From Bacteroidales bacterium (GTDB lineage: Bacteria; Bacteroidota; Bacteroidia; Bacteroidales; UBA932): a stretch of 51,774 nucleotides of DNA. The notes below the pieces were generated by a model. That model was given only the letters and a program-made list of their open reading frames with translations, did not search any database and was not told the DNA's origin. The DNA is taken from contig JAFOER010000006.1 in assembly GCA_017380095.1 (NCBI GenBank), positions 1 to 51,774 on the forward strand, written 5' to 3'. Position numbers and translations under genes: made by a program. Shown in pieces: positions 1,134-44,353 of this stretch (position 1 is its first letter; every line of letters starts with the position of its first letter).

Positions 1134-1215
1134 GTTGATAAGTTGTTTTGTTTTCAAAGATAAGAAATTCACCAATATCTTTTGTGGAATTGCTTGTACT
1201 TCCAACAAATATGTA

Positions 1216-1223
1216 TACCTTTG
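1216..1223 (+). promoter_or_regulatory. Candidate -7 promoter box (TACCTTTG) for the small-ORF transcript
   Basis: Exact TAnnTTTG match on the plus strand. The DUF169 start lies upstream and the repeat B leader, 51-aa ORF and terminator lie downstream. Confidence 0.35.
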
Positions 1224-1302
1224 CGTTGGAAAAAATATTTCAATCATAGGAGAAGCAAGCGCTCCTACGCAATTTAAACAGGGTAAGAATTTTAATATAA
1301 TT

Positions 1303-1387
1303 CAAGCCCTGTTTTTTGTTATAACGGGTGATGTAGTCTTGAAAAGCCGCTCATCGCGCTCGAATTTCAATTTAAAACTATGATTGT
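1303..1387 (+). repeat. Direct repeat copy B (~85 nt), which forms the leader and start codon of the 51-aa ORF
   Basis: Aligns with 168..254. The identical core is at 1321..1344, with a 1-nt indel (extra A at 1345) relative to copy A. Confidence 0.85.
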
Positions 1388-1535
1388 AGTCAATATTTTT
1401 TCCAACAAATGCGTAATAGAGCGCCTTAGCAAAGAGTGCAAGGATGCTCCCCGTAAACAATTTTTTATCCGAGGCCACTTCAGAGTGGTTAACGGCAAGA
1501 AGGTTTACGTAAAGCCCCATTACCGTAAAGGGTAA
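1380..1535 (+). CDS. Small, highly basic hypothetical protein of 51 aa (below the ORF-track cutoff)
   Basis: My own translation is MIVVNIFSNKCVIERLSKECKDAPRKQFFIRGHFRVVNGKKVYVKPHYRKG, with 13 K/R against 3 D/E. An in-frame TGA lies at 1329 and a strong plus-strand terminator lies 37 nt after the stop. No homology could be tested. Confidence 0.4.
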   Translation: MIVVNIFSNKCVIERLSKECKDAPRKQFFIRGHFRVVNGKKVYVKPHYRKG

Positions 1536-1571
1536 CAGGGCATAAACTTATAGCATCTTCCACCCGTTTGG

Positions 1572-1602
1572 ACACCCGCAGAGATGTGGGTGTTCTTTTA
1601 TT
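1572..1602 (+). terminator. Rho-independent terminator
   Basis: Stem ACACCCGCA / TGTGGGTGT (9 bp with one G.U) around a GAGA tetraloop, followed by TCTTTTATT. The opposite strand has no U-tract. Confidence 0.7.
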
Positions 1603-1636
1603 GGATGTAAAGTTTGGACATAATTTATAATATGTC

Positions 1637-1644
1637 TACTTTTG
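1637..1644 (+). promoter_or_regulatory. Candidate -7 promoter box (TACTTTTG) for the MazG-like gene
   Basis: Exact TAnnTTTG match, 29 nt upstream of the ATG at 1673. Confidence 0.45.
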
Positions 1645-1672
1645 TTTATCAGATAAGCTAATATATGTGTCT

Positions 1673-2002
1673 ATGGGTGAGATAAAAGAAATAACCGAAA
1701 AGATAAGACAATTTACAGAAGATAGAGATTGGGATCAGTTCCACAATCCAAAAGACTTGGCTATAGCTATTAGCATAGAGGCCAATGAATTATTGGAGTG
1801 CTTCCTTTGGAAATCCCATAATGAGGCCAAACCGGAGAAAGTAAAAGAAGAATTGGCAGATATTTTTAATTATGCATTTCTTTTGGCCGAAAAACTAAAT
1901 CTTGACCCATTGCAAATTGTAGAAGAAAAAATGCGTAAAAATGCTGAAAAATATCCTGTCGAAAAATCCCGTGGAACTGCAAAAAAATATAATGAACTAT
2001 AG
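1673..2002 (+). CDS. MazG-like nucleotide pyrophosphohydrolase (small all-alpha NTP-PPase, DCTPP1/RS21-C6-like)
   Basis: Contains RDWDQFHNPKDLAIAISIEANELLECFLWK and EELADIFNYAFLLAE, the ExxE/ExxD metal-binding helices of the MazG superfamily. The ORF-track start at 1667 is GTG; the first ATG is at 1673. Confidence 0.85.
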   Translation: MGEIKEITEKIRQFTEDRDWDQFHNPKDLAIAISIEANELLECFLWKSHNEAKPEKVKEELADIFNYAFLLAEKLNLDPLQIVEEKMRKNAEKYPVEKSRGTAKKYNEL

Positions 2003-2014
2003 CTGAGGATCTAT

Positions 2015-3748
2015 TTATCTATATGTATCCATAAATCTTTTCAGGTAATTCTGCATTCCCTGATTACATGCATATACATAACATCCTTTTATACCTCTAG
2101 TCATCATAACTTTATATGAGTTGACAATATACTTCTTTAGAGTAGCGTCGTCAACCCCACTTTTCACCTTGGTATCATAGAATTTGCTTCTGTCTATAGT
2201 AATGGTTTGGGATTGCTCATCATAATCAATCTCTTTACCAAATATTACAGCTACATAATTCAGATCATATCCCTGAGTTGTATGGACACATCCTATTTCA
2301 TTCACAGCTCCAGGTCGTAAAATCCACTCCTGATTGCTCATATTCCATACATACTTTTCGCCATCAAGTTCAATATCCTCCAAACCTTTGTCTATAGCTT
2401 GTTCCAACGTTATACACTCTTTGGATTGCCATTCCCATGAATAACCGGCAACTACTCTACACAAAGACATTAAAGAATCTTTATGGCGTATTTCCCTAAT
2501 CATAGCATTCGGATCATCCCAAATTTTAAAATCATAACTGGTGATATCCAATTTTTGGCTCTGATTTACCTGAAAAATATCATCAAGATATTGGGTATAA
2601 GCTACACCTCCCTCACATCTCATTTGAGATTTAAGGTTACTCCTATGCCGTACATCTCTTCTTACTAGTGCACTCTCAAACTGCTCGGCTGTTAGATCAG
2701 ATGACTTTACCGTCTGGTTTTCATCATAAACAAGGACACTGTATCTTGACTTGATTTGGATCATATCAAGTTGCGTTGACGTGCTTTCGTCAATATCAAG
2801 AGTCCTGCACGCTTCGTCAAATGAACCGTAACTGGTAATGCCATGCCTTCTTGCCAATCTATGTGATTCATCTACAAATATCACGTCATACTTACCGTTT
2901 TCCTTAACAACTTCTTGAGGACCAATAACCATAGCAGGATTAAGTCCTGTATCTTTTGATGCTTTGAATACGGCCTTGAATGTTTTCCTTATTGAGGTCA
3001 TAGGAACTACAAAAGCAATTTTAAGACTTCCATGCTTATCAACATACTCACGTATTCTGTTGGAAATGGATATCCTTTCAAGCAATTCCAATTGCTCCTC
3101 CGGACCAAGATCGCCATCGTTATATCTGATATTCATTGCACTCATAAGAGTATATATCATATGGATAACGACGATAGATTTACCTGTACCTGCCTTACCA
3201 CTTAAGATTGAGGTACCAGTCTTGTCACTTTCCAGGGTATCCAATATGTTACTTATAATTTCATGTGATACCGCTTCCTGTTCAGGAGTTAAAGTATTAT
3301 ATGGAGAATACTTGAACAAATTGGAGTTTCTGATTTCAGAAGAGCTGCTTTTTGTAATATTGTGTCTTTTTAATTCATTCCAGATTTCATCAACCTTACT
3401 TTGATAAAGTGCCCGTTGGTAATAATCATGTTTACATGACTGCCCTCCATTTTTATTCTGCAACTTGTACTTCTGGTCTGCCAAAAACATTTGAATCAAT
3501 GTCTGCTCAATATCCAATATTGCAGATTTATTGAATTGATCATCAAAGATAAATCGGATATTGATAAGGGATTGCCTTTCCGGATTATTAAGATGTTGAT
3601 TAAACCTGCCTCCCGCACTGGTAGTTTCACCAACATACAATTGTTTATCATTGTCAATCAAATAAACAACAGGCCAATTCTGACCTTTAGGATGCTGTTT
3701 GAGCAACTGTAAACCGTCATTACTGAATATGTAATTTCTAATTTCCAT
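2015..3748 (-). CDS. GIY-YIG nuclease domain fused to a DUF2075 (Schlafen-like) P-loop ATPase/helicase
   Basis: The N-terminus reads VVYLIDNDKQLYVGETTSAGGRFNQH...DIEQT, which fits the GIY-x9-YIG-x8-R...E pattern. Walker A is GKAGTGKS and Walker B is VIFVDESHRL. VYDENQ, HTTQGYDLNYVAVIFG and MTRGIKGCYVY are typical of DUF2075. The track start at 3763 is TTG; the first ATG is at 3748. Confidence 0.8.
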   Translation of the reverse strand: MEIRNYIFSNDGLQLLKQHPKGQNWPVVYLIDNDKQLYVGETTSAGGRFNQHLNNPERQSLINIRFIFDDQFNKSAILDIEQTLIQMFLADQKYKLQNKNGGQSCKHDYYQRALYQSKVDEIWNELKRHNITKSSSSEIRNSNLFKYSPYNTLTPEQEAVSHEIISNILDTLESDKTGTSILSGKAGTGKSIVVIHMIYTLMSAMNIRYNDGDLGPEEQLELLERISISNRIREYVDKHGSLKIAFVVPMTSIRKTFKAVFKASKDTGLNPAMVIGPQEVVKENGKYDVIFVDESHRLARRHGITSYGSFDEACRTLDIDESTSTQLDMIQIKSRYSVLVYDENQTVKSSDLTAEQFESALVRRDVRHRSNLKSQMRCEGGVAYTQYLDDIFQVNQSQKLDITSYDFKIWDDPNAMIREIRHKDSLMSLCRVVAGYSWEWQSKECITLEQAIDKGLEDIELDGEKYVWNMSNQEWILRPGAVNEIGCVHTTQGYDLNYVAVIFGKEIDYDEQSQTITIDRSKFYDTKVKSGVDDATLKKYIVNSYKVMMTRGIKGCYVYACNQGMQNYLKRFMDTYR

Positions 3749-3777
3749 CTTGGTTATGTTCAATCAATTATACTTCC

Positions 3778-14116: not shown

Positions 14117-14498
14117 CGTTATTGCGTTTATTTTTGAATACAAATTTTACCAATATAAAGTTTACCGGTATGGCAATTGCAAACACAGGCAGCGGTGCCC
14201 ATTTTGCCCCCACTCCAATCCAAAGGAACAGATTGAGAAGTACCATATGCAGCAGGTAATTCACCCCGTGGGCCCCCGCCATACCAAAAAGTTTCTTCCA
14301 CGACGGTGCACTTCCAAAAGTGAAATATGATGTGAGGTAAAAATTAACCACAAAACTCAGAAGGTAACCCACCGTATAGGCAATGTTTACATTAATGGCC
14401 ATCTGCAGAAGGAAATAGATTCCGTAGTGGAGAGCAGTACATACACCTCCCACTATTCCAAAACGGACAAATTCCCATATTACAGGATTAATCTTCAT
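14109..14498 (-). CDS. GtrA family membrane protein
   Basis: 129 aa with four TM segments. FVRFGIVGGVCTALHYGIYFLL is the GtrA-like N-terminus. Confidence 0.8.
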   Translation of the reverse strand: MKINPVIWEFVRFGIVGGVCTALHYGIYFLLQMAINVNIAYTVGYLLSFVVNFYLTSYFTFGSAPSWKKLFGMAGAHGVNYLLHMVLLNLFLWIGVGAKWAPLPVFAIAIPVNFILVKFVFKNKRNNDE

Positions 14499-16455
14499 CT
14501 GTTATCCTCCCCTGTCTTACAAGATACTCTGTACTCTGGAGCATTGAGAAGCAGTACTCCTTGAGCATCCTGTAGGTATCGTTGTCCTCCTCCACTGCAA
14601 TCTTTCCACCCACATGCCTGTACCTGAATTCCTGGCCGGTCTCAGGCGAAAATATATAAACCCTTTCAGAATCGCGTGCCGCAATGAGGTTATCTGCAGT
14701 ATAGAACATGCAAGGTCTCTTCTCATTAAGGAGATCAACACCAAAATTAATCTGAGTATATCCCACACCCAACATTCCAAGTATTGTAGGGGCAACATCT
14801 ATCTGCCCTCCAAAAGCACCGTTTACGCCCTTTTCTATCCCTTTCCCGTAAATCATAAGAGGCACATGGTTATACGACTGCGGCATCTCGCTCTCCGGAG
14901 TACCCACAAGCTTGCCGTGGTCACCCAAAAGGACAAAAATTGTATTGTCAAACCAAGGCTCCTTACGGGCCTGGGCAAAGAATTTCCTTATGGACCAGTC
15001 TGCATACTCAACAATGGCATCCTCCATCTTCTGTGAACGTGGAGTAAAATACTCAGGTATAACATACGGAGGGTGATTGCTTATTGAAAGCAACGCAGCA
15101 AAGAAAGGTTCCCCGCTCTCCGCCCTTGCATTCAGTACAGGGAGGGCGTACTCATAAAGGTAATCATCCTGCACGCCAAAATGGTTTGCTATCTTCTCCT
15201 TAGGGTAATCCTCCTGGGCAAATATCTCGTCAAATCCGTTGGTACGGAAGAATGCATTCATGTTGTCGTACTGGCTCTCGTGGGTCATGAAGAACATGTT
15301 GTGATATCCGTTATCCTTCAATATTGTCGGGAAGCCGCAATAAACGGGAATCACACTACCCTTCATTGCATTGCGCTTCATTATGGTAGGGAATGAATAC
15401 AGGGTGGAGTACATTCCGTGATTGGTGTGGATTCCGGCAGAGTAAATGTTGGTAAACAGAAGCGATTCACCTGCCAAAGAATCAAGGAACGGGGTAAGGT
15501 TGCCACTGTTGCCGAAAGTACCCATAAGATTGGCACTCATGGATTCCATAAAGATGAACACAATGTTCCTTTTCTGTGGCTGTGCCGCCCCCTCAACCTT
15601 TCTGGCAATTGGGGAAACTGACTCAATGCCCTCCCTGCCAAGGAGTTTCTGTGCTGTTGCAAGCGCCTCCTCAACAGGCATCACATCAAGGAGCTTGTTC
15701 TCCTTGCGCTGGTCGTCGAGATAACTTGTAAGAAGGTTGAACACCGGATTTACACCCAACTGGTTAAGGAAAGGATCTGTGCAGTAGTATGCCTGGCTCA
15801 CCTTAATTGGATTGTATCCTGTACGCCCCCTTATTCCAAAAACGCACAAGCCTGAAACAACTGCTCCAAGCAGAAGAATTGACGCAAAGTTCTTTATGGT
15901 ATATGGCAATACCGGCTGTTTGCTCCTTTTATAGAATACCATTGCCAGCTTGCATACTGCAAAACCGAATCCCACTACAGCCGCAAAGCCAAGTGCTATT
16001 GGGAAATAGTAAGAACTCTCTCCCACAATCATTCCGGCTGTTGTTCCGGCATAGCCGAACCAGTTGAAGATTGAGGAGTTTATGATCTTGAAGAAATACT
16101 CAAAGTACGGGATATTGGCCGCCGTAAATGAAAATGCAATGGCGTACATTATTGCAAACCACCATCCGGCAAACCTGTAAAGCCATTTTGCAGTATAGTT
16201 GAACAGGGATGCCACCCACATTACCAAAAGTGGAAGGGTAAGGATATAGCAGGCAATCACGTTGTCAAACCACACTCCCTTTACAAAGGCTATACTCTGG
16301 AGAAACCAATCTGCACTGATCTCCTGCGGAAACTCATAACTTGTTGTAAGGAAGAGTACCAGACGGAAAATTCCAAACACAAGCAGTGCCAGCAGATGCA
16401 CGGTAACAAGATACCCCAATGCTGTGGTAAATTTCTTTATAGGGCTCCTTTTCAT
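14488..16455 (-). CDS. LTA synthase/sulfatase-family membrane protein (phosphoglycerol or phosphoethanolamine transferase-like)
   Basis: An N-terminal multi-TM region followed by an alkaline-phosphatase-superfamily domain (NIVFIFMESMS, LLGDHG). Confidence 0.8.
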   Translation of the reverse strand: MKRSPIKKFTTALGYLVTVHLLALLVFGIFRLVLFLTTSYEFPQEISADWFLQSIAFVKGVWFDNVIACYILTLPLLVMWVASLFNYTAKWLYRFAGWWFAIMYAIAFSFTAANIPYFEYFFKIINSSIFNWFGYAGTTAGMIVGESSYYFPIALGFAAVVGFGFAVCKLAMVFYKRSKQPVLPYTIKNFASILLLGAVVSGLCVFGIRGRTGYNPIKVSQAYYCTDPFLNQLGVNPVFNLLTSYLDDQRKENKLLDVMPVEEALATAQKLLGREGIESVSPIARKVEGAAQPQKRNIVFIFMESMSANLMGTFGNSGNLTPFLDSLAGESLLFTNIYSAGIHTNHGMYSTLYSFPTIMKRNAMKGSVIPVYCGFPTILKDNGYHNMFFMTHESQYDNMNAFFRTNGFDEIFAQEDYPKEKIANHFGVQDDYLYEYALPVLNARAESGEPFFAALLSISNHPPYVIPEYFTPRSQKMEDAIVEYADWSIRKFFAQARKEPWFDNTIFVLLGDHGKLVGTPESEMPQSYNHVPLMIYGKGIEKGVNGAFGGQIDVAPTILGMLGVGYTQINFGVDLLNEKRPCMFYTADNLIAARDSERVYIFSPETGQEFRYRHVGGKIAVEEDNDTYRMLKEYCFSMLQSTEYLVRQGRITDED

Positions 16456-18227
16456 TTTCTCTCAAATTTATAGATATGGGTAATGTCCCTGAAATCGTTG
16501 CTCTTGAACTCTATCCCCTCCACCTGCTCTATATTGAACTGCGGTGAATATGTATCGTGGAATTTCTGTGCCTCCTTGTCGCCTATGATCACGTATCCTT
16601 TGTCGGGAGCAAAATCCACAAACGGCACTACCCTGTTGTTCAGATAAAAATTGATGGTAAACGGATGCATCCTGTTTGCCATAACGGTATTTGTAATGTA
16701 TGAATACACATACCCCTCCGGTACCAGCTGTGCAATCTTCATGGCATCCTCCTTGTTAGATTTCACATTCAGCACTGCCGGCTGGAAAATTCCGTCCAAG
16801 GCAACAAACAGCACAAACGCCATTACAATGCCCTGCAATCCCAATCTCATCTTCTCAAACTCCACACAGCACTCACACTTGCATCCCTTGTTTTTATAGA
16901 TGAAGTACCACACCGCAACTGCCAACGGCAACAGTGCAAGGAGGAACCCCACACCAAACGGAAGGTTCTCCAATGCCTCCAGATATGCAATGTTCTCCGC
17001 AGCATGTTTGCCGCCAAAGAGTGAATGAGGAACCACTCCGCACCTTGCAATTATGAATATTCCCGACAACAATGCCATGAGTCCACCCATAATATTGTTG
17101 AACCACCTGAGGGATTTTGGCCTGTTGTGGATGAGCCAGATGATGTACTCTGCAATGAAATAGGCTATGAAAGGATATATCGGGAGGAGATACACACTCC
17201 TCTTGCTCTTTGGTATGCAGTAGAATACAAACATTATTGTTATGCTCAGCAGCGAGAACAGGCGGGCATCGTCCATATTCTTTATCCATTGCACAAACTT
17301 GCTCCACCACTCCTTTGGTTTTGAAGACACCTTTGTATACTTGAGTGTGAATAAAGACAAAAGGAGCAATATTGTATAAGGGACAAATCCCGTAATTACT
17401 GTCATTACATTATACGGCCAAGGGTTCTCGTGCGACGAGTAGCTCATCTTGCCAAGGAACCTGTACACGTTCTCCTCAAGGACAAGCTGAAGGAAAGGCT
17501 CCCCACCCTGTTTCCACGCAGCCACATACCAGAATGCAGGCAAAATGCACGCGGCTAAAGCAACTCCTATGAAAGAGAAGCAGATTCTGATAAAGTTTAT
17601 ACCCCTTATCCAGCAGAAAGCGGCAACCACAGCACAAGGAAGTACCAGACCAACAGGACCTTTTGTAAGGAATGCACCGCTGAGGAAAAGGATACCGAGC
17701 CAAGGGATCCCCCTAAGTTTTTTCTCCGCCCATTTGTAAAGTTCATATAATGCCAAAACCATAAATGCGGCCAGAACCATATCTACACGGCAGTTTACAC
17801 CTGCCCGGTGCACCTCAAAGTTGGTAAGGGTTATAAGGGCTGTAAGCAATGCCAGCTCCCTGCCCCTGCGCTTTGCAAAGAATGAATAACCCACAAGCAC
17901 CATAGCTGCAAGCGCCAAAGCCGAAGGGAATCTTGAAGTGTACTCATTAACCTCACCAACAACAGAAGATGTTGCTGCAATCATCCAATGGAAGAACGGT
18001 GGCTTGTAAGCCATATCCACTCCGTTTGTTGTAGGAAGGGTCCAGTTTGAACCGTTTATCATGGCCTGGGCCACAAGTGCCTCGCGCGGCTCACCTCTTG
18101 TATGGAAACTGCTGCTGCCCAGAAAAAGGAACAAAGAAAGGAAACTCACAAGGGCAACAAGCCAGAAATACTTATCCTTATAGAAACTAACCATTGTTGT
18201 AAATTTATAAACAACAAAGTTAATCAT
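16452..18227 (-). CDS. ArnT/PMT-like GT-C glycosyltransferase (GT83-like)
   Basis: 591 aa and polytopic. The N-terminal loop TRGEPREALVAQAM...YKPPFFHW resembles the ArnT/PMT_2 family. Its stop overlaps the next start by 4 nt (ATGA). An alternative ATG is at 18194. Confidence 0.75.
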   Translation of the reverse strand: MINFVVYKFTTMVSFYKDKYFWLVALVSFLSLFLFLGSSSFHTRGEPREALVAQAMINGSNWTLPTTNGVDMAYKPPFFHWMIAATSSVVGEVNEYTSRFPSALALAAMVLVGYSFFAKRRGRELALLTALITLTNFEVHRAGVNCRVDMVLAAFMVLALYELYKWAEKKLRGIPWLGILFLSGAFLTKGPVGLVLPCAVVAAFCWIRGINFIRICFSFIGVALAACILPAFWYVAAWKQGGEPFLQLVLEENVYRFLGKMSYSSHENPWPYNVMTVITGFVPYTILLLLSLFTLKYTKVSSKPKEWWSKFVQWIKNMDDARLFSLLSITIMFVFYCIPKSKRSVYLLPIYPFIAYFIAEYIIWLIHNRPKSLRWFNNIMGGLMALLSGIFIIARCGVVPHSLFGGKHAAENIAYLEALENLPFGVGFLLALLPLAVAVWYFIYKNKGCKCECCVEFEKMRLGLQGIVMAFVLFVALDGIFQPAVLNVKSNKEDAMKIAQLVPEGYVYSYITNTVMANRMHPFTINFYLNNRVVPFVDFAPDKGYVIIGDKEAQKFHDTYSPQFNIEQVEGIEFKSNDFRDITHIYKFERK

Positions 18228-22006: not shown

Positions 22007-24496
22007 TTAAATCTCATTAAGCGACTTGAAACTGTAACCAAGCTTGGTCATGTGCTTGATAATCTCCTCAAGCCTGTCATAAAGTCTGTCTGTCCTCTCC
22101 TCACTTACACCCGGATGGACAAGTATGATTGCACCGTTCAATCCCTCTACAACCTCAAAGTTGAGCAGCTGGTCAATAAGCTGCTGTGAACTTCTGTAGT
22201 TCTTCATCGACGGTGTTGTGTAATCTGCAGGTGTTGATGTACCAGGAGTGTAGTTGAGCACCTTGTATCCGAGGCTCTCTGTAATCCTTACACTCTCGTC
22301 ATTGTAATACTCATATGGAGGGAGGAACCACAATGATTTCTCTTTGGTTATGCCAAATTTCTCAAGCTCCCTTGCGTTTGCAATGATATCATCCTCAATC
22401 TGCTTATAGGTAACAATAAGGGAATCCCTGTTGTCCCATCCGGCATAAAGCATATGGGAGTCTGAATGGCCGCCCACATAATGCTCCTCCTTTATTATTT
22501 TCTCTATGATCTCCTTATGCTCCTCCATCCTCAAGGCATTTCCGGTAAAGAAGAATGAACCTTTGATCCTGTTCTTTTTAAGGGTTTTAAGAATCTTCTC
22601 TCCTCCCTGGAACATTGAGTCTGCTGTAAATACAAGGAATATGTTCTTCTCTTCAGGTTTTATCCTTACAACACAATCATATTTGTCCTTGACAACATTA
22701 AGGGTCTTCTGCTGCTTGCCCATCTCCTCCATTGCAGAAAAATAGTAGGTAAGTCCCGCAGAGCCGTCCATTGTAGGCTCATTACTTGAATAGTCGCCAT
22801 AATCATCATGGTATACAGCCTCTCCCTCATTGAACACTGCAAGATCGTCAGGTCTTGTAAGCGATTCTCCTGCCCTCTCCTCAAAAAGGTCTCTCTGGAT
22901 AGGTCCGTCAATAAGGCCTCCGTAAGTGATGTCATTCCACTCAGTAAGGTATGAAGAGTGAGGATACTGCGGATAATCTGCAATTGAAGGGTAACCCACT
23001 ATCATTGTTGTTCCCCATGGGTTACATCCCAGAAGCCAGTCCCTTAGAGCCATCTCCATCTCCACGAACGAAGAGTCTCCCGATGCAATATTGTATAGTC
23101 TTGCATAAGAAACAGCCGCTGAAGTAAGGTTGTTTGAGCACCACAAGTATGGAACACCGTGCATGAACGGATCGTTCTCTGCATTTTTCTTCAGGATATC
23201 CAGACCAAGCTTCATGAAGCCCTGGTATTTCTTTGCTATCTTTTCATTTGTACTCTTTGCCTGGAGGAAGTGTCCCAGGTTGATGAACGGATACCATTGG
23301 TAGTGATGGTACTCACCTCTTCTGCCAACCTCCATCCAAGGGGTTACAGGCTCAAGGTCTCCCCAGTAGTTTGCCTTCTTGGTCCACTCAGGCATACCTG
23401 TAAACTCTGCCAGAGTTGCTGCTGCAAGCTCAAGGTCATCCACATATGAATCCTCCTCATAGAAGTATGGTGATACAAGACATGCTGTCTGTGTATTGCC
23501 GGGGAACTCCTCGCCAAAGTTGAATGCCTGAACAGCCTTAACCTGTATTGTGTTGGCAAGTTTAGGATCAATATCCTTGAAAATTTGTGCTCCCAACGCA
23601 AAGGTTGAAGCAAATTTTCCTGCAGTTGAAGCAACACCGGTGGTCCTGTTTATATGTTTTCCCAATCCCTGAGGCTTGCCTGTAACAAAATATACAGGTC
23701 TTCCCTCACCAGGGCCCCATCCGTAATCAACTGTATCCTTATGAGGCAATCTGAATCCTGCATGGTCCCTGTCATCGGCAATCTGGTTGAACATCACCTT
23801 GTCCTCAGGGTTCATCTTGTTGAGCCACTCAAGTCCCCATTTGGCCTCATCAAGGATGTCGGGAATACCGTTTGAACCTTTTCTGCCGTTTGCAAGGTAT
23901 TTGTCTTTGAATACAGACTTGTCCTTTGCCATATAGTATGCAAACATCATGTGATAGGTAGCTGTTGCTGATGTTGTCTGGTACTGAAGGTAATCTGTAG
24001 CATCGTGCCAGCCTCCCCTTACGTCAATCTTCTCACCGTTGCGGGTAGGATGGTCTACAATGAATCCGTCGTGCTGGTGGCACAAGGTATCTGTATAAGG
24101 ATTGTCGCCGCATCTCTGCTGCCTCATGTACACGAGCATATAGTCTGCAAGTCCGTCATATACATCTGCCCCAATCCTGAAATTGGGTGATTTGGCATCC
24201 CCACACTCAATGTAGTAGCCTCCCTCCTTCTTCAAATCCGAGAAGTTGAGTCTGTATGCAGAACCCATTTTCCATTTTTCACCGCTTACAGCCTTTGTAT
24301 GCGCAACCAGCACAACCTCACCTGTAACAGCATCGCAAACCTTGAACGATGCAGCCTTTACCGGCTCCTTGGAAATGAATACAGCAACTTTTACATCATT
24401 AGGCAAATAACCTACAGTGTTCACCCTAACCCATTGCTGCGCAAAGAGTTGTACCGAGCAAAACATTACCGCTAAAATAAACAACAGCCTTTTCAT
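22007..24496 (-). CDS. Secreted GH9 glycoside hydrolase fused to a C-terminal polysaccharide deacetylase (CE4-like) domain
   Basis: Signal peptide, an Ig-like CelD_N-type N-domain (VRVNTVGYLP) and GH9 core motifs (GGWHDATDY). The C-terminal ~220 aa carry VFTADS and HSDSH motifs (NodB-like) and ILVHPG. Confidence 0.75.
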   Translation of the reverse strand: MKRLLFILAVMFCSVQLFAQQWVRVNTVGYLPNDVKVAVFISKEPVKAASFKVCDAVTGEVVLVAHTKAVSGEKWKMGSAYRLNFSDLKKEGGYYIECGDAKSPNFRIGADVYDGLADYMLVYMRQQRCGDNPYTDTLCHQHDGFIVDHPTRNGEKIDVRGGWHDATDYLQYQTTSATATYHMMFAYYMAKDKSVFKDKYLANGRKGSNGIPDILDEAKWGLEWLNKMNPEDKVMFNQIADDRDHAGFRLPHKDTVDYGWGPGEGRPVYFVTGKPQGLGKHINRTTGVASTAGKFASTFALGAQIFKDIDPKLANTIQVKAVQAFNFGEEFPGNTQTACLVSPYFYEEDSYVDDLELAAATLAEFTGMPEWTKKANYWGDLEPVTPWMEVGRRGEYHHYQWYPFINLGHFLQAKSTNEKIAKKYQGFMKLGLDILKKNAENDPFMHGVPYLWCSNNLTSAAVSYARLYNIASGDSSFVEMEMALRDWLLGCNPWGTTMIVGYPSIADYPQYPHSSYLTEWNDITYGGLIDGPIQRDLFEERAGESLTRPDDLAVFNEGEAVYHDDYGDYSSNEPTMDGSAGLTYYFSAMEEMGKQQKTLNVVKDKYDCVVRIKPEEKNIFLVFTADSMFQGGEKILKTLKKNRIKGSFFFTGNALRMEEHKEIIEKIIKEEHYVGGHSDSHMLYAGWDNRDSLIVTYKQIEDDIIANARELEKFGITKEKSLWFLPPYEYYNDESVRITESLGYKVLNYTPGTSTPADYTTPSMKNYRSSQQLIDQLLNFEVVEGLNGAIILVHPGVSEERTDRLYDRLEEIIKHMTKLGYSFKSLNEI

Positions 24497-37757: not shown

Positions 37758-38441
37758 ATGATTTTTGAGACATCCCTGCTGAGTACAGCGTACTTCCCTC
37801 CCATTGAGTACTTTGCCGTAATTGCAAACTCGGCAAAAGTTGAGATAGAGAGCGGGGAGATGTACCAGAAACAGTCATACAGAACCCGTTGTCACATAAA
37901 TGGTGCCAACGGGCTTCTTGTTCTCACACTTCCTGTTCTGAGGAGTGCCGCAAAAGAAGATGGTGCAAGCAGCCACAAACTGCCTACATCTGAACTTAAG
38001 ATTGACTACAGCAAGCCATGGCTGCTCCAGCACAAGAGGGCCCTTGAAGCAGCATATATGTCATCCCCTTTCTTTGAGTACTATATGGATGACATCTATG
38101 AAATACTCGATTCTGGAGAGGAATCACTCCTTGCCCTCAACACACGTCTCACACGCAAGATATGTGAGCTGACAGGAATTGGGACCCCCATAACCCTTAC
38201 AGACGGGAACTTCATCCTCCCAGGGGCTGAAGAGCTCACTGCCCGCAACATTTCAGACTTCAGGGAATCAATACACCCCAAGAGGGAATCACATCTGCTT
38301 GAAAGGCTTAAACTTGAAAAGCCCTACTGGCAGGTTTTCACCAACAAGCAGGGCTTTGTCCCAAATCTTACCATCCTGGACCTCCTTTTCAATGAAGGCC
38401 CAAATGCAATATCTTTTCTAGAATCTGAATCCTACAGATAG
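37758..38441 (+). CDS. WbqC family protein
   Basis: STAYFPPIEYFAVI and QKQSYRTRCHI are typical WbqC-like N-terminal motifs. 227 aa. Confidence 0.7.
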   Translation: MIFETSLLSTAYFPPIEYFAVIANSAKVEIESGEMYQKQSYRTRCHINGANGLLVLTLPVLRSAAKEDGASSHKLPTSELKIDYSKPWLLQHKRALEAAYMSSPFFEYYMDDIYEILDSGEESLLALNTRLTRKICELTGIGTPITLTDGNFILPGAEELTARNISDFRESIHPKRESHLLERLKLEKPYWQVFTNKQGFVPNLTILDLLFNEGPNAISFLESESYR

Positions 38442-39959
38442 AAGAAGTTTCCACCCCTTCATTTTTGACATGCCTGCAGGCGCAGGTACGGTTGTGTCAT
38501 TATATAGGGTAAAACCCTCTTCCGGATTGTTCAACAACTGCTGATAGGTAAGGTCTACAAACAGGTCACTTGCTCCGCACGGCCAAACATAACCGGCACC
38601 AATGGAACCTATATTGCGTTCCCCCTCGCTGCTGTCACCTGCATAAGGAGATGAATAGTGCTGGTAACCTGCCCTTACTGCAAATGCAGGATTAACATTT
38701 ATCTCTGCACCCACTCTGAAAATATCCTGTTTTACAAACAGTTTGCGGATATCACTGTTCTCCACATCATACCCGAACTCATAATCGGCATCCTTCAGTT
38801 TGGCCTTTGTATAATCAACACTTTCATAGTCTGCACTTATCACCCCCCTGCTGCCCAGCATCACCGCGGCTCCCACATTCCATCTGAAAGGGGTATTGAG
38901 CCTGTAGTTATATGTACCCAACGGAGAAATTATCCTCTGGCTGTAACCGTCACTGAACTCTGAATTTACACCATTCTCCCACTCCTCGCTAAGATACATC
39001 CATGTAGGGGTAGAGATGCTTGCGCCCAATCTGAGCCAGTTTGCCGGCAGATAAATGAGGCCTGCCTTCAAGTTGATTCCTGTACCTGTAGCCTTGTATC
39101 TGTATCCGTACGAAAAGTAATTGAAACCTGACTGGAAATCTGAACTGTTGAGCGCCTCCTCCTGCATCATCTCCTCATATTTGTACATTATGCTCTGAAT
39201 GCCAAGGTTCACACCCACAAACAATTTGTCAGAGAAATTGCCTCCCCAGTTGATTACAGCCTCAGTCACATTGCCCACTGACTCAGCATTGAACCTCTGC
39301 GCCAACTCTCCTCCTACTGTAATGTCGTTCCCGTAAAGGTTCTCAGTTGCTGCATAATACAAATCAGACGTACCTGGAAGGGTATCCAGCAACGATGCAT
39401 TCCATGCAAGAATTGAATTCCAGGAAGCATTGCTGCTGTAGAAAGGGTCATTATGGTCTGTGAAATCCATATTTGGGGCATAGATTCCGTCTGTATTGTA
39501 AGCCACGCTTGCAAGCCAGCTTGAGGCATCTGTCTGTCCGTACACCTTTCGTGCTCCGGTAAAGTTGTTCTGCTTGTTGAGCAGCAATCCTACACTCCAG
39601 CTTACCAGGCCCGAATTCTTGCCTGTAGAGTATGAACCTACATAACCGAAATTTGCAACGCCCGCCCTTGTCTTGTTTGCAGAGCTGGAAAAACCGAGGT
39701 AATCAGATTCCATACCTGCAACCGTAACGGTAGGGGTAAACATGAACTCGGAATACCTGTACACTGCACTCGATGCAGGATTGATTGAAATGCCTCCCAT
39801 ATCTCCGCCAACGGCCACAAATGCATTACCCATTGCCACACTTCTGGCAGTGCCCTCCGCATACTGTTCTGAAAACCTCAACGCATCGTATGCATTCTGG
39901 GCATACAGACCTGCAGCTGCAAACATTGCTGCACCGGCCAATATAAATTTTCTTAACAT
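38418..39959 (-). CDS. Outer-membrane beta-barrel protein, FadL/TodX-like (putative)
   Basis: Signal peptide ending YAQ. The N-terminal segment is GTARSVAMGNAFVAVGGDMGGISINPASSA. Has alternating beta-strand periodicity and a C-terminal Phe (SVGFRF). Confidence 0.55.
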   Translation of the reverse strand: MLRKFILAGAAMFAAAGLYAQNAYDALRFSEQYAEGTARSVAMGNAFVAVGGDMGGISINPASSAVYRYSEFMFTPTVTVAGMESDYLGFSSSANKTRAGVANFGYVGSYSTGKNSGLVSWSVGLLLNKQNNFTGARKVYGQTDASSWLASVAYNTDGIYAPNMDFTDHNDPFYSSNASWNSILAWNASLLDTLPGTSDLYYAATENLYGNDITVGGELAQRFNAESVGNVTEAVINWGGNFSDKLFVGVNLGIQSIMYKYEEMMQEEALNSSDFQSGFNYFSYGYRYKATGTGINLKAGLIYLPANWLRLGASISTPTWMYLSEEWENGVNSEFSDGYSQRIISPLGTYNYRLNTPFRWNVGAAVMLGSRGVISADYESVDYTKAKLKDADYEFGYDVENSDIRKLFVKQDIFRVGAEINVNPAFAVRAGYQHYSSPYAGDSSEGERNIGSIGAGYVWPCGASDLFVDLTYQQLLNNPEEGFTLYNDTTVPAPAGMSKMKGWKLLLSVGFRF

Positions 39960-39979: not shown

Positions 39980-40978
39980 CTATCTCCTTCTGTATGAAGA
40001 TCCTCCTCCCGACGATCTTGTAGCTCCTCCAGAACTGTAACTGCCCCTGTTGGAACCTCCGCTGTATGATGAACCGCTCCTGTTATTGGAGTTGCTGCTT
40101 CTGTTGTATGAGCTCCTGTTCTGCTGGCTTCCCTGCTGCTGGCTCTTCTGCTGCTGTTTCACACTGCCGTTCTGCTGGCCGGTATTGCCCTGCTGGTTTC
40201 TTGAAGGCCTGCGGGTAACGCTTCCCTGCTGGTTCCTGCCGTCAACATTTCCAGGTTTTCCGGCTGTAACACTACCCCTGTTTATCCCATTATAAGTAGA
40301 GCCTGAACCTCTTTTTCCATAATATACATTCCTTCCTGGTCTGCCGTGTCCGGGATGATACCCTGGTCCCCCTGCAGGTCCGTGTCCAGGCCATGGTGCA
40401 TATATAGGGCGGTGTATAGGGCCCCACCACGGGTCATACCAATGGCTGTGCCATGCCCAACTTGGAGTACTCCACCACGGATCATACCAATGGCCGTACC
40501 AGTGGCTGTACCAATGGCTGCGCCAAGGATTGTGCCAATAGGAGTGCCAGTGCCAGCTTGGAGTGTACCAATGCCATCTTGGTCCGTACCACCACATATC
40601 CACATCCCACCAGTACGGCTCAACAAAATTGATGTTTACTGTATAGGTAGGGGAATCGAACTTCCTCAAACGGGCTGCATAGCTCTCATCATCATCCATT
40701 ATGGTGTATGATGCACCCGGCTCATAATTTATGTTTACCTCATTGGCTTCTCCAACATAAACTGTTCTGGTATCGGATGCCGGTCCCTGCTGCGTTTGCT
40801 GTACCGCTGCAGGTTCCTCCTGCTGTGCAATCTGCACTGCGGAACTTCTGCTCCCTGGAGTGTAGTAGATGCTGTTTTTGAATTGTCCTCCCCCCTGCAG
40901 GGATGAATAGCCCACCGTACCACAAGAGAACAAAGGCAAAACTGCTGCCAATAAAACAAATAAGCTCCTGTTTTTCAT
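39980..40978 (-). CDS. Lipoprotein with an extreme Trp/His-rich core and a Gly/Ser/Asn/Arg/Tyr low-complexity tail
   Basis: Lipobox LPLFSC. Carries 21 Trp and about 11 His within 74-81 residues (YWWDVDMWWYGPRWHWYTPSWHWHSYWH...). The C-terminal ~115 aa are RGG/SY-like low complexity. I cannot name a family. Confidence 0.7.
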   Translation of the reverse strand: MKNRSLFVLLAAVLPLFSCGTVGYSSLQGGGQFKNSIYYTPGSRSSAVQIAQQEEPAAVQQTQQGPASDTRTVYVGEANEVNINYEPGASYTIMDDDESYAARLRKFDSPTYTVNINFVEPYWWDVDMWWYGPRWHWYTPSWHWHSYWHNPWRSHWYSHWYGHWYDPWWSTPSWAWHSHWYDPWWGPIHRPIYAPWPGHGPAGGPGYHPGHGRPGRNVYYGKRGSGSTYNGINRGSVTAGKPGNVDGRNQQGSVTRRPSRNQQGNTGQQNGSVKQQQKSQQQGSQQNRSSYNRSSNSNNRSGSSYSGGSNRGSYSSGGATRSSGGGSSYRRR

Positions 40979-41008
40979 TTTTACCTCCTGTGTTTTATAT
41001 ATTTTTTG

Positions 41009-41016
41009 TACTTTTG
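41009..41016 (+). promoter_or_regulatory. Candidate -7 promoter box (TACTTTTG) for proS
   Basis: Exact TAnnTTTG match, 65 nt upstream of the ATG at 41081. Confidence 0.35.
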
Positions 41017-41080
41017 TCGTTCATTATATATGCGAATATATCAAAAATTGTTCCAATCAGAAAAATAAAACAACAATATA

Positions 41081-42559
41081 ATGGCTAAAGAGGTTACAAA
41101 AAGAGAAGAGAATTACTCTCAGTGGTACAACAACCTTGTTGTAAAGGCAGACTTGGCAGAGAACTCTGCAGTGAGAGGTTGTATGGTAATCAAACCATAC
41201 GGTTATGCAATTTGGGAGAAAATGCAGCACCAGCTTGACACCATGTTCAAGGAGACAGGACACCAGAACGCATACTTCCCGCTGTTCATACCAAAATCGT
41301 TCCTGAGCAGGGAGGCCGAGCACGTTGAGGGATTTGCAAAAGAGTGCGCAGTGGTTACACACCACCGCCTTATGGTTGACCCTGAGGGAAACGGCGTTGT
41401 AGTTGACCCTAGCGCTAAACTTGAGGAGGAGCTTATTGTAAGGCCTACATCGGAGACCATCATCTGGAATACATATAAAAACTGGATCAACTCATACAGG
41501 GATCTTCCAATCCTTTGCAACCAGTGGGCAAATGTGGTAAGATGGGAGATGAGAACCCGTCTGTTCCTCAGAACCGCAGAGTTCTTGTGGCAGGAGGGCC
41601 ATACAGCACACGCTACAAAAGAGGAGGCTATTGAGGAGACAGAAAAAATGGTAAATGTGTATGCAAAATTTGCAAGGGAGTACATGGCAGTTCCTGTAGT
41701 GGTAGGAAAGAAATCTGCAAACGAGAGATTTGCCGGTGCCCTTGACACTTATTGCATTGAGGCAATGATGCAGGACGGAAAAGCCCTTCAGGCAGGTACA
41801 TCACACTTCCTTGGCCAGAACTTTGCAAAAGCTTTTGATGTGAAATATGCAAGCAAAGAGGGTACCTTGGAGTATGTATGGGCAACATCATGGGGTGTTT
41901 CAACCCGCCTTATGGGTGCCCTTATCATGGCACACTCAGATGACAACGGTCTTGTTCTTCCTCCAAAATTGGCTCCTATACACGTAGTTATGGTTCCTAT
42001 CTTCAAGACAGACGAGGAGCATGCTGCAATTATCGGGAAGATGGAGGAGTTGAAGAAAGGTTTGGAGAGCCTTGGACTTTCTGTGAAGATTGACGACAGG
42101 GACAACCTGAGAAGCGGCTTCAAATTTGCAGAGTGGGAGCTTAAAGGTGTTCCGGTAAGGATTGCAATGGGTCCGAGGGATCTTGCCAACGGCACAATTG
42201 AGGTTGCACGCAGGGATACCCTTACAAAGGAGTCTATGCAGCTTGAGGGTGCAGAGGCAAAAATCAATGCCCTTATGGATGAGATTCAGGCAAACATCTA
42301 CCAGAAGGCTTTGGATTTCAGGGCAGCAAAAACCATTCAGGTTGACACCTGGGAGGAGTTCAAGGAGAAGATTGAGGAGGGTGGATTCCTTTTGTGCCAC
42401 TGGGACGGAACTCCTGAGACAGAGGAGAGAATAAAGGAGGAGACTAAAGCAACCATCCGTTGCATTCCTCTTGATACAAACGTAATTATGGAAGAGGGCA
42501 AGTGCATCTACTCAGGCAAGCCTTCAAAACAGAGAGTAATTTTTGCAAGATCATACTAA
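41081..42559 (+). CDS. proS: Proline--tRNA ligase (archaeal/eukaryotic-type)
   Basis: 492 aa with class II motifs and a C-terminal ProRS-specific domain ending in ...FARSY. Confidence 0.93.
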
Positions 42560-42578
42560 ACAAACATACAGAACATTT

Positions 42579-43289
42579 ATGGCAGCAGATCCTTTACCGA
42601 ACCAGCAACAGCTGATACTTAAGGGGCTTCAGGAGAAAGCCTACATCAAATCCTGCATCTACTCGCAGTCGCTTGAGGTTTTCAACGAACTTAAAGAGGT
42701 GTTGAGCGAGATAAGCAACGACCTTACCGACATCCTTTCAGAGTCTGAGAAGAACAAGAAGATAAGACTTGAATACAGGGACAGGGGCAAATATGAGGCA
42801 GAACTCAAGTTTGCAGATGATGTATTGGTTTTCAGTATGCATACAGACATTTTCCAGTTTGACAGGGATCATGCAATCTGGAAAAACAGCTATTCCAAGG
42901 AATCGCCTTACAACACCTACTGCGGTGTTATAAGTGTATACAACTTCCTTTCAGACTCCTTGAAGTTCAGCAGGAACGAGGATTTGGGATATCTTGTTGC
43001 AAGGATGTTCGTGAACAAGGACAAGAAGTTCTTTGTGGAGGGAAAACGCCAGAGCAGGCAGAAGATTTCCTCTTTCGGAAAGGTAGACCTCACCAAGGAG
43101 GAACTTGTGAATTTTGTTGAATCGGCAATGTTGTACTCATTGTCTTTCGACCTTCTTGTTCCGCCGTTCGACCTTGTAAAAGTTGCAAGCGTAGAACAGA
43201 TAAATGCCAAAATAGAGAGTGCAAAAATGAGGACAGGCAAACGTATGGGTTACAAATACAACTCAGACGATGTCCTTGAAAACGAATAA
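42579..43289 (+). CDS. Hypothetical protein
   Basis: 236-aa ORF from the first ATG (the track start at 42543 is TTG). Sits between proS and DUF3078 in the same orientation. No motif recognised. Confidence 0.5.
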   Translation: MAADPLPNQQQLILKGLQEKAYIKSCIYSQSLEVFNELKEVLSEISNDLTDILSESEKNKKIRLEYRDRGKYEAELKFADDVLVFSMHTDIFQFDRDHAIWKNSYSKESPYNTYCGVISVYNFLSDSLKFSRNEDLGYLVARMFVNKDKKFFVEGKRQSRQKISSFGKVDLTKEELVNFVESAMLYSLSFDLLVPPFDLVKVASVEQINAKIESAKMRTGKRMGYKYNSDDVLENE

Positions 43290-43291: not shown

Positions 43292-44353
43292 ATGAGATTG
43301 AGAGCGTTAAGATTCCTTTTTGTTTCACTTGTGTTGCTGTTTGCAGCATCACTCTCCTTGCGTGCACAGGTAAAGGATACCATGAACCTCTCAAACTTGA
43401 ATGCGGCACAGGAACTTTGCAGGATTATAGGCTCGCAGTTTGTGGTTCCTACCATAAACTATGAGCCTGTGACTCCTCCAAAATTCTGGACCAACGGTAT
43501 GCAGACAGAGCTGGGATTCTCGCAGATTTCACTTACCAACTGGGCAGCCGGAGGATCCGGTTCCGTAGCATTGAATACCTTTGTAAATGCCAACGCCAAC
43601 TATGCCAAGGGAAGCATGTTCTGGGACAACAGGGTACAGCTTGCATACGGCTTCCTGCAATCCTTTGAAGACGGTTACCGCAAGAGCAATGACAAAATTG
43701 TAATTGACAGCAAATGGGGCTATAAGGCAATCAACAAGCTCTATTTTTCTGCCAACTTCAACTTCAGGTCGCAGTTCTCCCCAGGATTTGAGTACAGCAA
43801 ATCCCAGGTAATAAAGGATGGGCACAAAGAAAGCGTCATAACCTCAAAGAAAGTATCCAAATTCCTTGCGCCGGCATATACGTCACTGGCTCTGGGTATC
43901 GACTACAAACCGGGCAACGGAAAGGAACTTTCCGTGAACATTGCCCCATTGACCGGAAATGCCGTAATAGTATGTGTTGCTGACTCCGCTTTCAGGGCCA
44001 AATACGGTAACAAGAAACACGAGGCAGTAAGGTGGGAGCTGGGTGCCCAGATAAAGGCTTCGCTCAACAAGAACCTGCTCAAGACACTTAAAGCCACATC
44101 TACCCTTACCCTCTTCTCCGATTATCTTCACAATCCGGAGAACATTCAGGTAAACTGGGATATGCAGCTTACTTATATACTCAACAAATACCTCACTACA
44201 GGTATCAGGACCAACCTTATCTACGATGACAACGTCCTCATAGCCACCACCAGGGTAAATGAGAAGAACGAGACGATAATGACCAAGAAAGTTCAGCTGC
44301 AGGAGATATTCAGCGTGAGTTTCACCTACACATTTGGCATGTTCAAGAAGTAG
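43292..44353 (+). CDS. DUF3078 domain-containing outer-membrane protein
   Basis: Signal peptide. WTNGMQTELGFSQISLTNWAAGGSGSVALN is the characteristic DUF3078 N-terminal block. Has beta-barrel periodicity. Confidence 0.7.
   Translation: MRLRALRFLFVSLVLLFAASLSLRAQVKDTMNLSNLNAAQELCRIIGSQFVVPTINYEPVTPPKFWTNGMQTELGFSQISLTNWAAGGSGSVALNTFVNANANYAKGSMFWDNRVQLAYGFLQSFEDGYRKSNDKIVIDSKWGYKAINKLYFSANFNFRSQFSPGFEYSKSQVIKDGHKESVITSKKVSKFLAPAYTSLALGIDYKPGNGKELSVNIAPLTGNAVIVCVADSAFRAKYGNKKHEAVRWELGAQIKASLNKNLLKTLKATSTLTLFSDYLHNPENIQVNWDMQLTYILNKYLTTGIRTNLIYDDNVLIATTRVNEKNETIMTKKVQLQEIFSVSFTYTFGMFKK

Follow-up and report, generated by a model that had tools for sequence, protein, structure and literature searches.

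The DNA considered here, hereafter the window, is a stretch of 51,774 nucleotides (contig JAFOER010000006.1 of the Bacteroidales bacterium assembly GCA_017380095.1) that carries on its minus strand the gene of a predicted lipoprotein with an extremely tryptophan-rich segment, followed by the gene of a predicted outer-membrane barrel of the FadL/BamG/PorV superfamily. The pair lies between the divergent proS upstream and the convergent genes wbqC, lpxA, fabZ, lpxC and lpxD downstream, and the barrel gene starts 20 nt past the lipoprotein stop codon. The first-pass annotation of this stretch, made from its letters, had reported a lipobox, an N-domain of about 100 residues, a block with 21 Trp and 10 His, and a low-complexity tail of RGG/SY type ending in SSYRRR, and could assign no family; the block stands at 40391-40615 exactly as quoted there, and about 102 residues separate Cys19 of the lipobox from it. 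The barrel partner, the repeated xYRR motifs and the lack of a signal for surface export come in addition to that annotation. The features of the locus, with the kind of evidence in brackets, are the following.

39980..40978, minus strand: complete gene of the 332-aa aromatic-block lipoprotein (open reading frame (ORF) list, 109 homologues, purifying selection in all four regions)
39980-39982, minus strand: lipoprotein stop codon (ORF list)
40922..40978, minus strand: signal peptide and lipobox, residues 1-19 (MKNRSLFVLLAAVLPLFSC), with Cys19 as the predicted lipidated residue (conservation)
40778..40921, minus strand: conserved segment behind the cysteine (GT....A...G.QF.NSIYYTP), then a variable Q/E-rich linker, residues 20-67 (conservation, AlphaFold2 (AF2) model)
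40619..40777, minus strand: predicted folded domain, residues 68-120, family signature DDDESYEARLRKFDSPTYTVNI (AF2, alignment)
40391..40615, minus strand: aromatic block, residues 122-196, predicted to be disordered and strongly interface-seeking (sequence, AF2, Wimley-White scale)
40485..40520, no strand: tandem repeat of 12 bp x3 within the block, encoding SHWY-SHWY-GHWY (Tandem Repeats Finder)
40307..40390, minus strand: Pro/Gly/His hinge (PGHGPAGGPGYHPGHGRPG) and then the motif R-(D/N)-V-Y-Y-G-K-R, residues 197-224 (conservation)
39983..40306, minus strand: residues 225-332, most of the predicted disordered, polycationic S/G/N/Q/R/Y tail, with motifs of the xTRR/xYRR type (composition, charge, AF2)
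39983..40000, minus strand: C-terminal SSYRRR, where conservation within the tail is highest (alignment, translation checked)
40979..41080, no strand: divergent intergenic region of 102 bp between the lipoprotein gene and proS, presumably holding both promoters (sequence, ORF coordinates)
38418..39959, minus strand: downstream partner, a 513-aa barrel of the FadL/BamG/PorV superfamily, mature N-terminus QNA.DA.R.SQQ..EGTARSVAMGNA (AF2, Foldseek, adjacency)

The lipoprotein family and its folded domain

The first-pass annotation had proposed to define the family and its range, and to predict structure and disorder. A search of 5.8 billion proteins returned 109 homologues, all of them unnamed or called 'hypothetical protein' and all from metagenome-assembled genomes of Bacteroidales, and a profile of the N-terminal 120 residues gave 268 clusters at 50% identity (expectation value (E) <=1e-3) among 1.84 billion representatives, the named sources being uncultured Bacteroidales of rumen, caecum, faeces and digesters. 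With few exceptions the full-length members have in common the MKN..SCGT lipobox, the F.NSIYYTP segment, a small domain, the aromatic block, the RDVYYGKR hinge, the S/G/R/N/T tail and an end of SYRR(R) type. In comparison with the three closest loci for which DNA was at hand, the ratio of nonsynonymous to synonymous substitution rates (dN/dS) amounted to 0.10-0.35 in every module at dS 1.0-3, and to 0.18-0.35 at dS > 1.2 in the aromatic block, where 15-16 of 18-21 aligned single-codon Trp were kept and the replacements were mostly Tyr or Phe. Such low ratios at nearly saturated dS, together with the retention of Trp, indicate that the frame is translated and that the block is under purifying selection; thus, the annotation, which had named the lack of translation or of such selection as the contrary evidence, was borne out in its reading of a translated lipoprotein, with Cys19 invariant.

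No match was found for the window lipoprotein in Pfam and NCBIfam, and among 32 relatives Pfam gave only one weak, mucin-like match. Sequence searches of the PDB with the family profile, the N-domain profile and the block alone gave no meaningful match; a match of the tail region to a mitoribosomal protein (6hiv_BK, E 7e-5) was regarded as compositional, low-complexity similarity. Nothing relevant turned up in the literature on Trp-rich lipoproteins of Bacteroidetes, on disordered lipoproteins rich in aromatic residues, or under the motifs SSYRRR, KFDSPTY, YDPWW and RKFDSP. Since the fold searches described below were negative as well, the statement that no family can be assigned still stands. 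On these sequence comparisons the protein belongs to a real, conserved and unnamed family, without any relative in curated families and with an architecture that seems to have no known precedent.

Some of the records bear titles of Gram-positive taxa, namely 'Candidatus Egerieisoma sp.' (loci L008, L009, L012, L015-L017, L024, L026, L027 and L033), 'Eggerthellaceae' (L051) and 'Acutalibacteraceae' (L057), while their contigs carry the gene pair beside lpxA, lpxC and lpxD. In the NCBI taxonomy Ca. Egerieisoma is placed in the Clostridiaceae and Ca. Egerieousia in the Bacteroidales; the Gram-positive labels are probably mis-assigned or mistyped, or the contigs mis-binned. In two further loci the genes are broken: in L076 (4170-4920) the lipoprotein gene is split over two frames and in L077 (7494-9087) the barrel is called as 341 + 145 aa, which are frameshifts or low-complexity assembly errors rather than evidence of pseudogenes.

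The N-terminus of the window lipoprotein, MKNR-SLFVLLAAVLPLF-SC, has the positive n-region, the hydrophobic h-region and the lipobox ([LVI][ASTVIF][GAS]C with invariant Cys, here L-F-S-C) by which the substrates of signal peptidase II are recognised, the lipidation itself being a prediction. The lipobox is present in nearly all family members, and in the 99-sequence alignment M1 and C19 are invariant, with K2, N3, L6, S18 and G20 conserved at >=90%. Surface export of lipoproteins has been tied to at least two acidic residues among the six that follow the lipidated cysteine (quoted in PMC12578637); these six positions hold no acidic residue in 160 of the 166 members and one in the other 6, and in the window protein they read C-GTVGYS. 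Further along the post-Cys segment N35, I37, Y38 and Y39 are conserved at >=90%, with an AF2 predicted local distance difference test (pLDDT) score of about 45-58. An AGGAGG-type Shine-Dalgarno sequence lies at 40983-40989, 5 nt 5' of the lipoprotein ATG; strong sequences of this kind are usually missing from Bacteroidota mRNAs, so that it may mark high or special translation.

The AF2 model built on the same alignment predicts folding for residues 68-120 only (pLDDT 79-90), with three strands, a helix and a strand (E70-75, E80-85, E90-95, H100-106 and E113-118). This domain of 53 residues, ESYEARLRKFDSPTY, is the best conserved part of the alignment and has the lowest dN; its extended signature reads TIYVGD.N.V.I.Y.P..TY.IVDDDESYEARLRKFDSPTYTVNI, and FDSPTYTVNINFVEPYWWDVDMWWYGPR is an example of an N-domain peptide. 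Foldseek gave nothing with E < 3 for the lipoprotein model against the PDB, where the folded domain has no neighbour, which is to be expected because only 53 residues were confidently modelled. In the block and the tail pLDDT is below 50 (34-49 in the tail), and no helix is predicted beyond residue 125.

The aromatic block and the cationic tail

The 75 residues 122-196 comprise 21 W, 10 H, 9 Y and 9 P and have no aliphatic core. Elsewhere in the window, over the 14,960 residues of 36 ORFs, Trp has a share of 1.1% and never exceeds 6 per 74; the binomial probability of at least 21 W in 74 is 9e-24, a chance origin of this density is excluded, and the first-pass annotation was right to call it extraordinary. 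A fresh expansion of DNA tandem repeats was considered as the origin of the block and ruled out, because Tandem Repeats Finder detected in it only the 12-bp x3 array that encodes SHWY and two 21-bp x2 arrays; the block is therefore not a recent repeat expansion. The SHWY-SHWY-GHWY run itself is a small lineage-specific one.

The composition of the block across the family was assessed in the best 75-residue window of each of 167-172 full-length members. The median block has 34 aromatic residues (45% W+Y+F). Over the family Y stands at 23%, W at 19%, P and G at 10% each, S at 7%, N and D at 5% each, H at 4.2% and F at 3%, with a slightly anionic mean net charge of -1.4. The recurrent unit is (G)WY(D/N)PW(Y/W), in which the residue before Pro is mostly Asp or Asn and that after it mostly Trp; the (S/G)HWY repeat named by the annotation is a variant particular to this lineage. 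Trp numbers 0-22 per block (median 15) and exchanges with Tyr and Phe through the family while the aromatic fraction stays, so that distant members have only 6-10 W and as many as 40-50 Y there, and the idea that Trp as such is essential finds no support. This interchange points to a compositional rather than a structural constraint, which therefore lies on aromatic density and Asx-Pro turns and neither on Trp nor on His as such.

By the Wimley-White scale the interfacial free energy of the block is -33 kcal/mol (family median -33.5), more favourable than any value reached over 75 residues by the multi-pass membrane proteins that the window encodes; among the surfaces that the annotation had listed as conceivable, the membrane interface is thus the one best backed by calculation. 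Per residue the value is -0.44 kcal/mol, compared with -0.47 for indolicidin, -0.32 for tritrpticin and -0.30 for the membrane-proximal external region (MPER) of gp41. Like these peptides the block is rich in W and P, would be unstructured in water and has a similar predicted partitioning into the interface; however, they are cationic peptides of 13-22 residues, while the block has 75 residues, is slightly anionic, is predicted to be lipid-anchored and tolerates Tyr in place of Trp. A precursor of an antimicrobial peptide was likewise rejected, since the aromatic block bears a slight negative charge and the tail, though cationic, lacks hydrophobicity.

Behind the block the PGHG/PGYHPGHGRPG stretch, the low-complexity tail and the SSYRRR end were all present as described. 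In these 136 residues (197-332) G accounts for 22%, S for 18%, R for 12%, and N and Q for 10% each; their net charge is +19, the family mean being about +21. The designation of the tail as RGG/SY-type holds for its G/S/N/Q/R/Y low complexity and not for its motifs, for RGG does not occur in the 136 residues, RG occurs 3 times and [GS]Y[GS] only twice; the motifs actually conserved are xYRR and YYGKR. In the hinge P209, Y219, Y220 and G221 are conserved at >=90% and R223 is invariant, and YYGK and YGKR are among the most frequent 4-mers of the family tails. The latter vary from 122 to 304 aa (S 21%, G 14%, R 12%, N 11%, T 7.5%, Y 6%) and have 3.2 copies each of the motif [YFTVIMH]R[RK], where shuffled tails have 0.7, a 4.5-fold enrichment, with one copy always C-terminal. 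Thus, R330 and R331 are invariant, G326, S327 and S328 are conserved at >=90%, and the 167 members end in SYRRR (68), SSYRR (21), SSTRR (10) or similarly, and a few in ...RRK. The variable length, the fixed end and the repeated short motifs would suit a flexible multivalent tether, not a random spacer. The O-glycosylation motif of Bacteroidetes, D(S/T)(A/I/L/V/M/T), does not occur in the window protein. A C-terminal signal of the sortase or exosortase type was ruled out as well, RRR not being preceded by a hydrophobic segment, and no C-terminal sorting domain of the type IX secretion system, be it Por_Secre_tail or a type B CTD, was detected in the window lipoprotein (Pfam, NCBIfam) or in the 32 relatives (Pfam), the C-terminus ...GGGSSYRRR being unstructured in the model.

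The partner barrel and the conserved neighbourhood

The barrel gene was found directly 3' of the lipoprotein gene in all loci with enough DNA among 76 related ones, where the order proS, lipoprotein-barrel, wbqC-lpxA is kept and the two genes of the pair are about 20 nt or more apart; the lipoprotein-barrel order recurs in the most distant lipoprotein members, and when distant barrel homologues were taken as the starting point, the upstream gene again encoded an aromatic-block lipoprotein ending in RR. The barrel has a length of ~515 aa across the family, about 110 residues more than BamG, a confident AF2 model (pLDDT 90) and a mature N-terminus that is almost invariant across relatives. Foldseek against the PDB placed BtBamG first (9hiv_F, E 3e-16), followed by EcFadL, the FadL of P. 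aeruginosa, PgBamG, FjBamG, TodX and TbuX; these FadL-fold matches have E from 3e-16 to 1e-10, target-normalised TM-scores of about 0.6 and identities of 10-14%, with porins far behind, and PorV is not among the best 50, in which the FadL-fold matches are FadL, TodX and BamG chains. By sequence the barrel profile reaches only TbuX in the PDB (E 9e-5) and detects no BamG chain there even at E up to 10.

The barrel shares with PorV, PorQ, FadL, TodX and TbuX the predicted FadL fold and the N-terminal motif GxARxxxMGxA...NPA; however, it scores below the curated cut-offs, the NCBIfam models of PorV and PorQ (NF033709/NF033710) being sub-threshold in 28 of 29 barrels (37.5 bits against a cut-off of 90 for that of the window). 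The FadL/Toluene_X family is recognised by a 14-stranded barrel with an N-terminal hatch and by PF03349 at its gathering score. Matches to UPF0164 occurred in 8 and to Toluene_X (PF03349) in 4 of the 29, while Pfam, PF03349 included, gave no match for the window barrel. There are about 7 extra residues before the NPA motif in comparison with E. coli FadL, by our own count; the N-terminal extension that defines BamG in comparison with FadL has about 10-12 residues and threads the lateral opening of the barrel (PMC12578637). To judge from the model and the sequence matches, the barrel may be described as a distinct subfamily of the FadL/PorV superfamily.

The closest precedent is given by the lipoprotein-barrel pairs of the β-barrel assembly machinery (BAM) of B. 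thetaiotaomicron, BamH/BamG and BamH2/BamG2 (Bt4306/Bt4367 and Bt1786/Bt1785; PDB 9HIV, 9HJM and 9N2D). As in those, a lipoprotein is encoded together with a barrel, here predicted to be 14-stranded and of the FadL type, that has a conserved N-terminal tail, and a similar docking may be supposed by analogy. However, neither of the two proteins has sequence similarity to its counterpart (profiles against the PDB, with 9HIV, 9HJM and 9N2D included), and BamH folds into a crescent, lies on the cell surface and carries an acidic export signal, in contrast to the present lipoprotein, which is predicted to be about 80% disordered, has no such signal, and bears an aromatic block and a cationic tail that have no counterpart in BamH.

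The barrel gene (minus strand) and wbqC (plus strand, 37758-38441) overlap convergently at their 3' ends by 24 nt (38418-38441), which leaves no room for an intervening terminator. Behind proS a 248-aa ORF without Pfam match (42543-43289, plus strand) is followed by a DUF3078 protein (43292-44353, plus strand), DUF3078 being a family of outer-membrane beta-barrels; both also follow proS in most of the related loci whose gene calls were inspected (L001-L004), whereas in L077 and L078 DUF3078 follows proS directly. This is a second uncharacterised envelope gene pair syntenic with that of the lipoprotein and barrel. The window otherwise holds chromosomal housekeeping genes (ftsK, hisS, infB, nusA, rimP, tmk and folP), glycoside hydrolases and a TonB-dependent receptor. 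At 22007-24496 (minus strand) an 829-aa protein unusually fuses a CelD_N Ig-like domain, a GH9 cellulase and a C-terminal polysaccharide deacetylase (CE4), which fits a plant-fibre-degrading host. A sulfatase-family (LTA synthase/EptA-like) membrane protein and a PMT_2 (ArnT-like) glycosyltransferase, encoded at 14488-18227 (minus strand) with a 4-nt gene overlap, suggest a modification of lipid A or of an envelope glycolipid. A 582-aa Schlafen group 3-like DNA/RNA helicase (2015-3763, minus strand; PF09848, E 2e-60), encoded in a stretch of lower guanine-cytosine content (37% at 1000-3000), may mark a defence or mobile island at the window's edge.

A possible membrane anchor and tether, and its rivals

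We tentatively propose, as a possibility that falls well short of probable, a composite arrangement in which the lipoprotein docks on the barrel, its aromatic block lies at the membrane interface and its tail tethers the assembly to an anionic polymer. A physical complex of the two proteins is inferred from the conserved gene pairing and from the precedent of BamG and BamH: the BAM of Bacteroidota includes the FadL homologue BamG, which binds the conserved N-terminus of the surface lipoprotein BamH with its lateral opening and its own conserved N-terminal tail, the paralogous BamH2/BamG2 form an operon, and PorV is a further FadL homologue that binds partners or cargo (PMC12578637, PMC12611786). 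By this analogy the lipoprotein and the barrel would form a stable outer-membrane complex, with docking through the post-Cys segment, the small domain or both on the model of BamH and BamG, and the lipoprotein would most likely be on the periplasmic face, because the acidic export signal of Bacteroidota lipoproteins is missing. The unfolded block, as the interfacial calculation suggests, may lie beside the barrel in the head-group and carbonyl interface of the lipids, adhering there very strongly without crossing the membrane. The cationic tail would serve as a flexible multivalent tether, whose xYRR motifs and free RR(R) end may bind an anionic envelope component, most likely peptidoglycan or an anionic lipid, and so join the outer membrane with its barrel to the underlying layer; cation-pi contacts of the Arg tails with the aromatic blocks of neighbours would permit self-association. 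The physiological part of the lipoprotein would be in envelope stability or in aiding the barrel in its own function.

Braun's lipoprotein Lpp, whose C-terminus reads ...YRK, and the tethers Pal and OmpA provide a parallel for such a role, since the present protein, too, would be an outer-membrane lipoprotein with a basic Tyr-Arg end able to reach the wall. However, Lpp is a trimeric coiled coil of 58 residues that is covalently linked through its terminal Lys by an L,D-transpeptidase, whereas the protein described here ends in Arg, has no coiled coil and repeats its motif internally. A version of the tether that regards the protein as a disordered, lipid-anchored 'block copolymer', with the Trp/Tyr block glued to the membrane interface or the barrel and the xYRR tail tethered non-covalently to peptidoglycan or another polyanion, or forming a membrane-bound gel, as an analogue of Lpp, Pal and OmpA, seems possible but unlikely.

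Several points weigh against the composite arrangement. The known partners of FadL-like docking barrels (BamH, PorU and PorZ) have a surface location, which speaks for the opposite topology, and the export-signal rule is empirical and comes from other Bacteroidota. No peptidoglycan-binding domain is detectable in the lipoprotein, and its C-terminal Arg cannot be cross-linked in the manner of the C-terminal Lys of Lpp. Low AF2 confidence is no proof of disorder, and the block could fold on a partner or ligand. The synteny, being observed within one clade, may reflect vertical inheritance only, and the adjacency of the lpx genes is without functional weight; a functional tie to the lipid A genes was considered and is not claimed, for the clade is narrow and the neighbourhood may be inherited.

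If the topology is instead that of the cell surface, the block would more likely capture hydrophobic or phenolic ligands or adhere to plant material. The lipoprotein would then be brought to the outside, or kept there, by the barrel as a substrate catcher or adhesin, the block of which captures fatty acids, bile acids, polyphenols, tannins, lignin fragments or plant fibre and feeds a FadL-type channel. This is a doubtful alternative, although it draws on the similarity of the barrel fold to FadL, TodX and TbuX, which are transporters of hydrophobic compounds, on the surface location of the known partners of FadL-like barrels in Bacteroidota, on the habit of these bacteria to pair outer-membrane transporters with surface lipoproteins, on the origin of all sources from herbivore or omnivore guts, rumen and digesters, and on the aromatic and Pro-rich composition, which in general suits stacking on sugars and polyphenols. 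However, the export signal is missing in the great majority of members (160 of 166), an Arg-rich disordered tail of 120-300 residues would presumably be highly sensitive to proteases in the gut lumen, and the neighbourhood is one of housekeeping genes and not a nutrient-utilisation locus. An accessory pair for outer-membrane biogenesis, the lineage counterpart of BamG/BamH, BamG2/BamH2 or a PorV/PorQ-type system, associated with BAM or a different envelope machine and with disordered parts acting in a chaperone-like manner or as a scaffold, is rather more improbable. BtBamG is the top structural match, with PgBamG and FjBamG near the top, the N-terminus of the barrel is conserved and about 7 residues longer before NPA than that of E. 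coli FadL, the operon arrangement resembles that of BamH2-BamG2 and the neighbours are envelope-biogenesis genes; but the barrel profile misses all BamG chains of the PDB, E up to 10, the TM-scores to BamG and FadL are equal (about 0.6), and the lipoprotein, mostly disordered, has neither the sequence or fold similarity nor the export signal of BamH.

A membrane-tethered condensate or gel, in which aromatic stickers and the Arg-rich tail self-coacervate by pi-pi and cation-pi contacts into a two-dimensional coat on or under the outer membrane, the function then being self-association and not the binding of an external ligand, has a similarly low probability. The annotation had compared the tail with self-assembling sequences, and the comparison is apt in that its composition is polycationic and of the sticker/spacer kind. 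As in the low-complexity domains of FUS type, there are S/G/N/Q/Y spacers, Tyr and Arg stickers and predicted disorder, here over the whole block-tail region (a block 45% aromatic; a tail with 12% R, 21% S, 14% G, 11% N and scattered Tyr), which matches the Tyr/Arg sticker grammar of the FUS family that Wang et al. reportedly described in Cell in 2018. This argument is one of composition, however: in contrast to FUS, the protein has no RGG in its tail, would be membrane-tethered and extracytoplasmic, and keeps aromatic and cationic residues in two separate blocks, while the discrete conserved motifs (RDVYYGKR, xYRR and the fixed C-terminus) suggest specific recognition and the obligatory barrel partner is left unexplained. 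The binding of metal, heme or porphyrin, or a redox function, through the His/Trp/Tyr-rich block had been among the options of the annotation, and the 10 His among 21 Trp of the window block, with their HW(Y/H) arrangements, and the common scavenging of heme by outer-membrane lipoproteins in Bacteroidales speak for it. As a family trait it is nevertheless disfavoured and very improbable, for there is no conserved His column, His numbers 2-18 per protein (4.2% of the family block) with only 2-5 in many members of full architecture, Cys or Met ligands are lacking, and Pfam and NCBIfam gave no heme- or metal-family match; that the constraint on the block does not concern His argues against a conserved metal or heme site. 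The last alternative, by which no real protein is encoded and the ORF is an artefact of low complexity or shadows a gene read in a different frame, would appeal to the low-complexity DNA that here yields long ORFs in several frames, but it is refuted to the point of having practically no probability by the conservation of the frame, lipobox, motifs and C-terminus over the 268 clusters, by dN/dS well below 1 and by the 15-16 Trp kept.

The outer membrane of Bacteroidota is constructed differently from that of Proteobacteria. The docking of lipoproteins by FadL-like barrels in BAM was shown only in 2025 (PMC12578637, PMC12611786), and the present locus is a third kind in which a lipoprotein is paired with a FadL/PorV-like barrel: the pairing as such is of a known kind in Bacteroidota, while the lipoprotein itself, predicted to be almost wholly disordered, has no relative in curated families. 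With Trp at 19% and W+Y+F at about 45% of a 75-residue block in at least 160 members, its composition is among the most extreme aromatic ones seen in conserved bacterial proteins. The lipoprotein is striking and conserved, yet it is confined to an uncultured clade, and the functions proposed for it are inferred ones. Should it act as a ligand catcher, it would bear on how hydrophobic or phenolic plant compounds are taken up in herbivore guts. Should the anchor and tether proposed above be true, it would reveal how the outer membrane is held to the wall in a lineage that lacks Lpp, and would provide a natural Trp/Tyr interfacial anchor and an Arg/aromatic sticker grammar outside the cytoplasm. 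As this clade, none of whose members is in culture, occurs abundantly in rumen and hindgut, the lipoprotein is also a potential lineage marker and a potential surface or envelope antigen.

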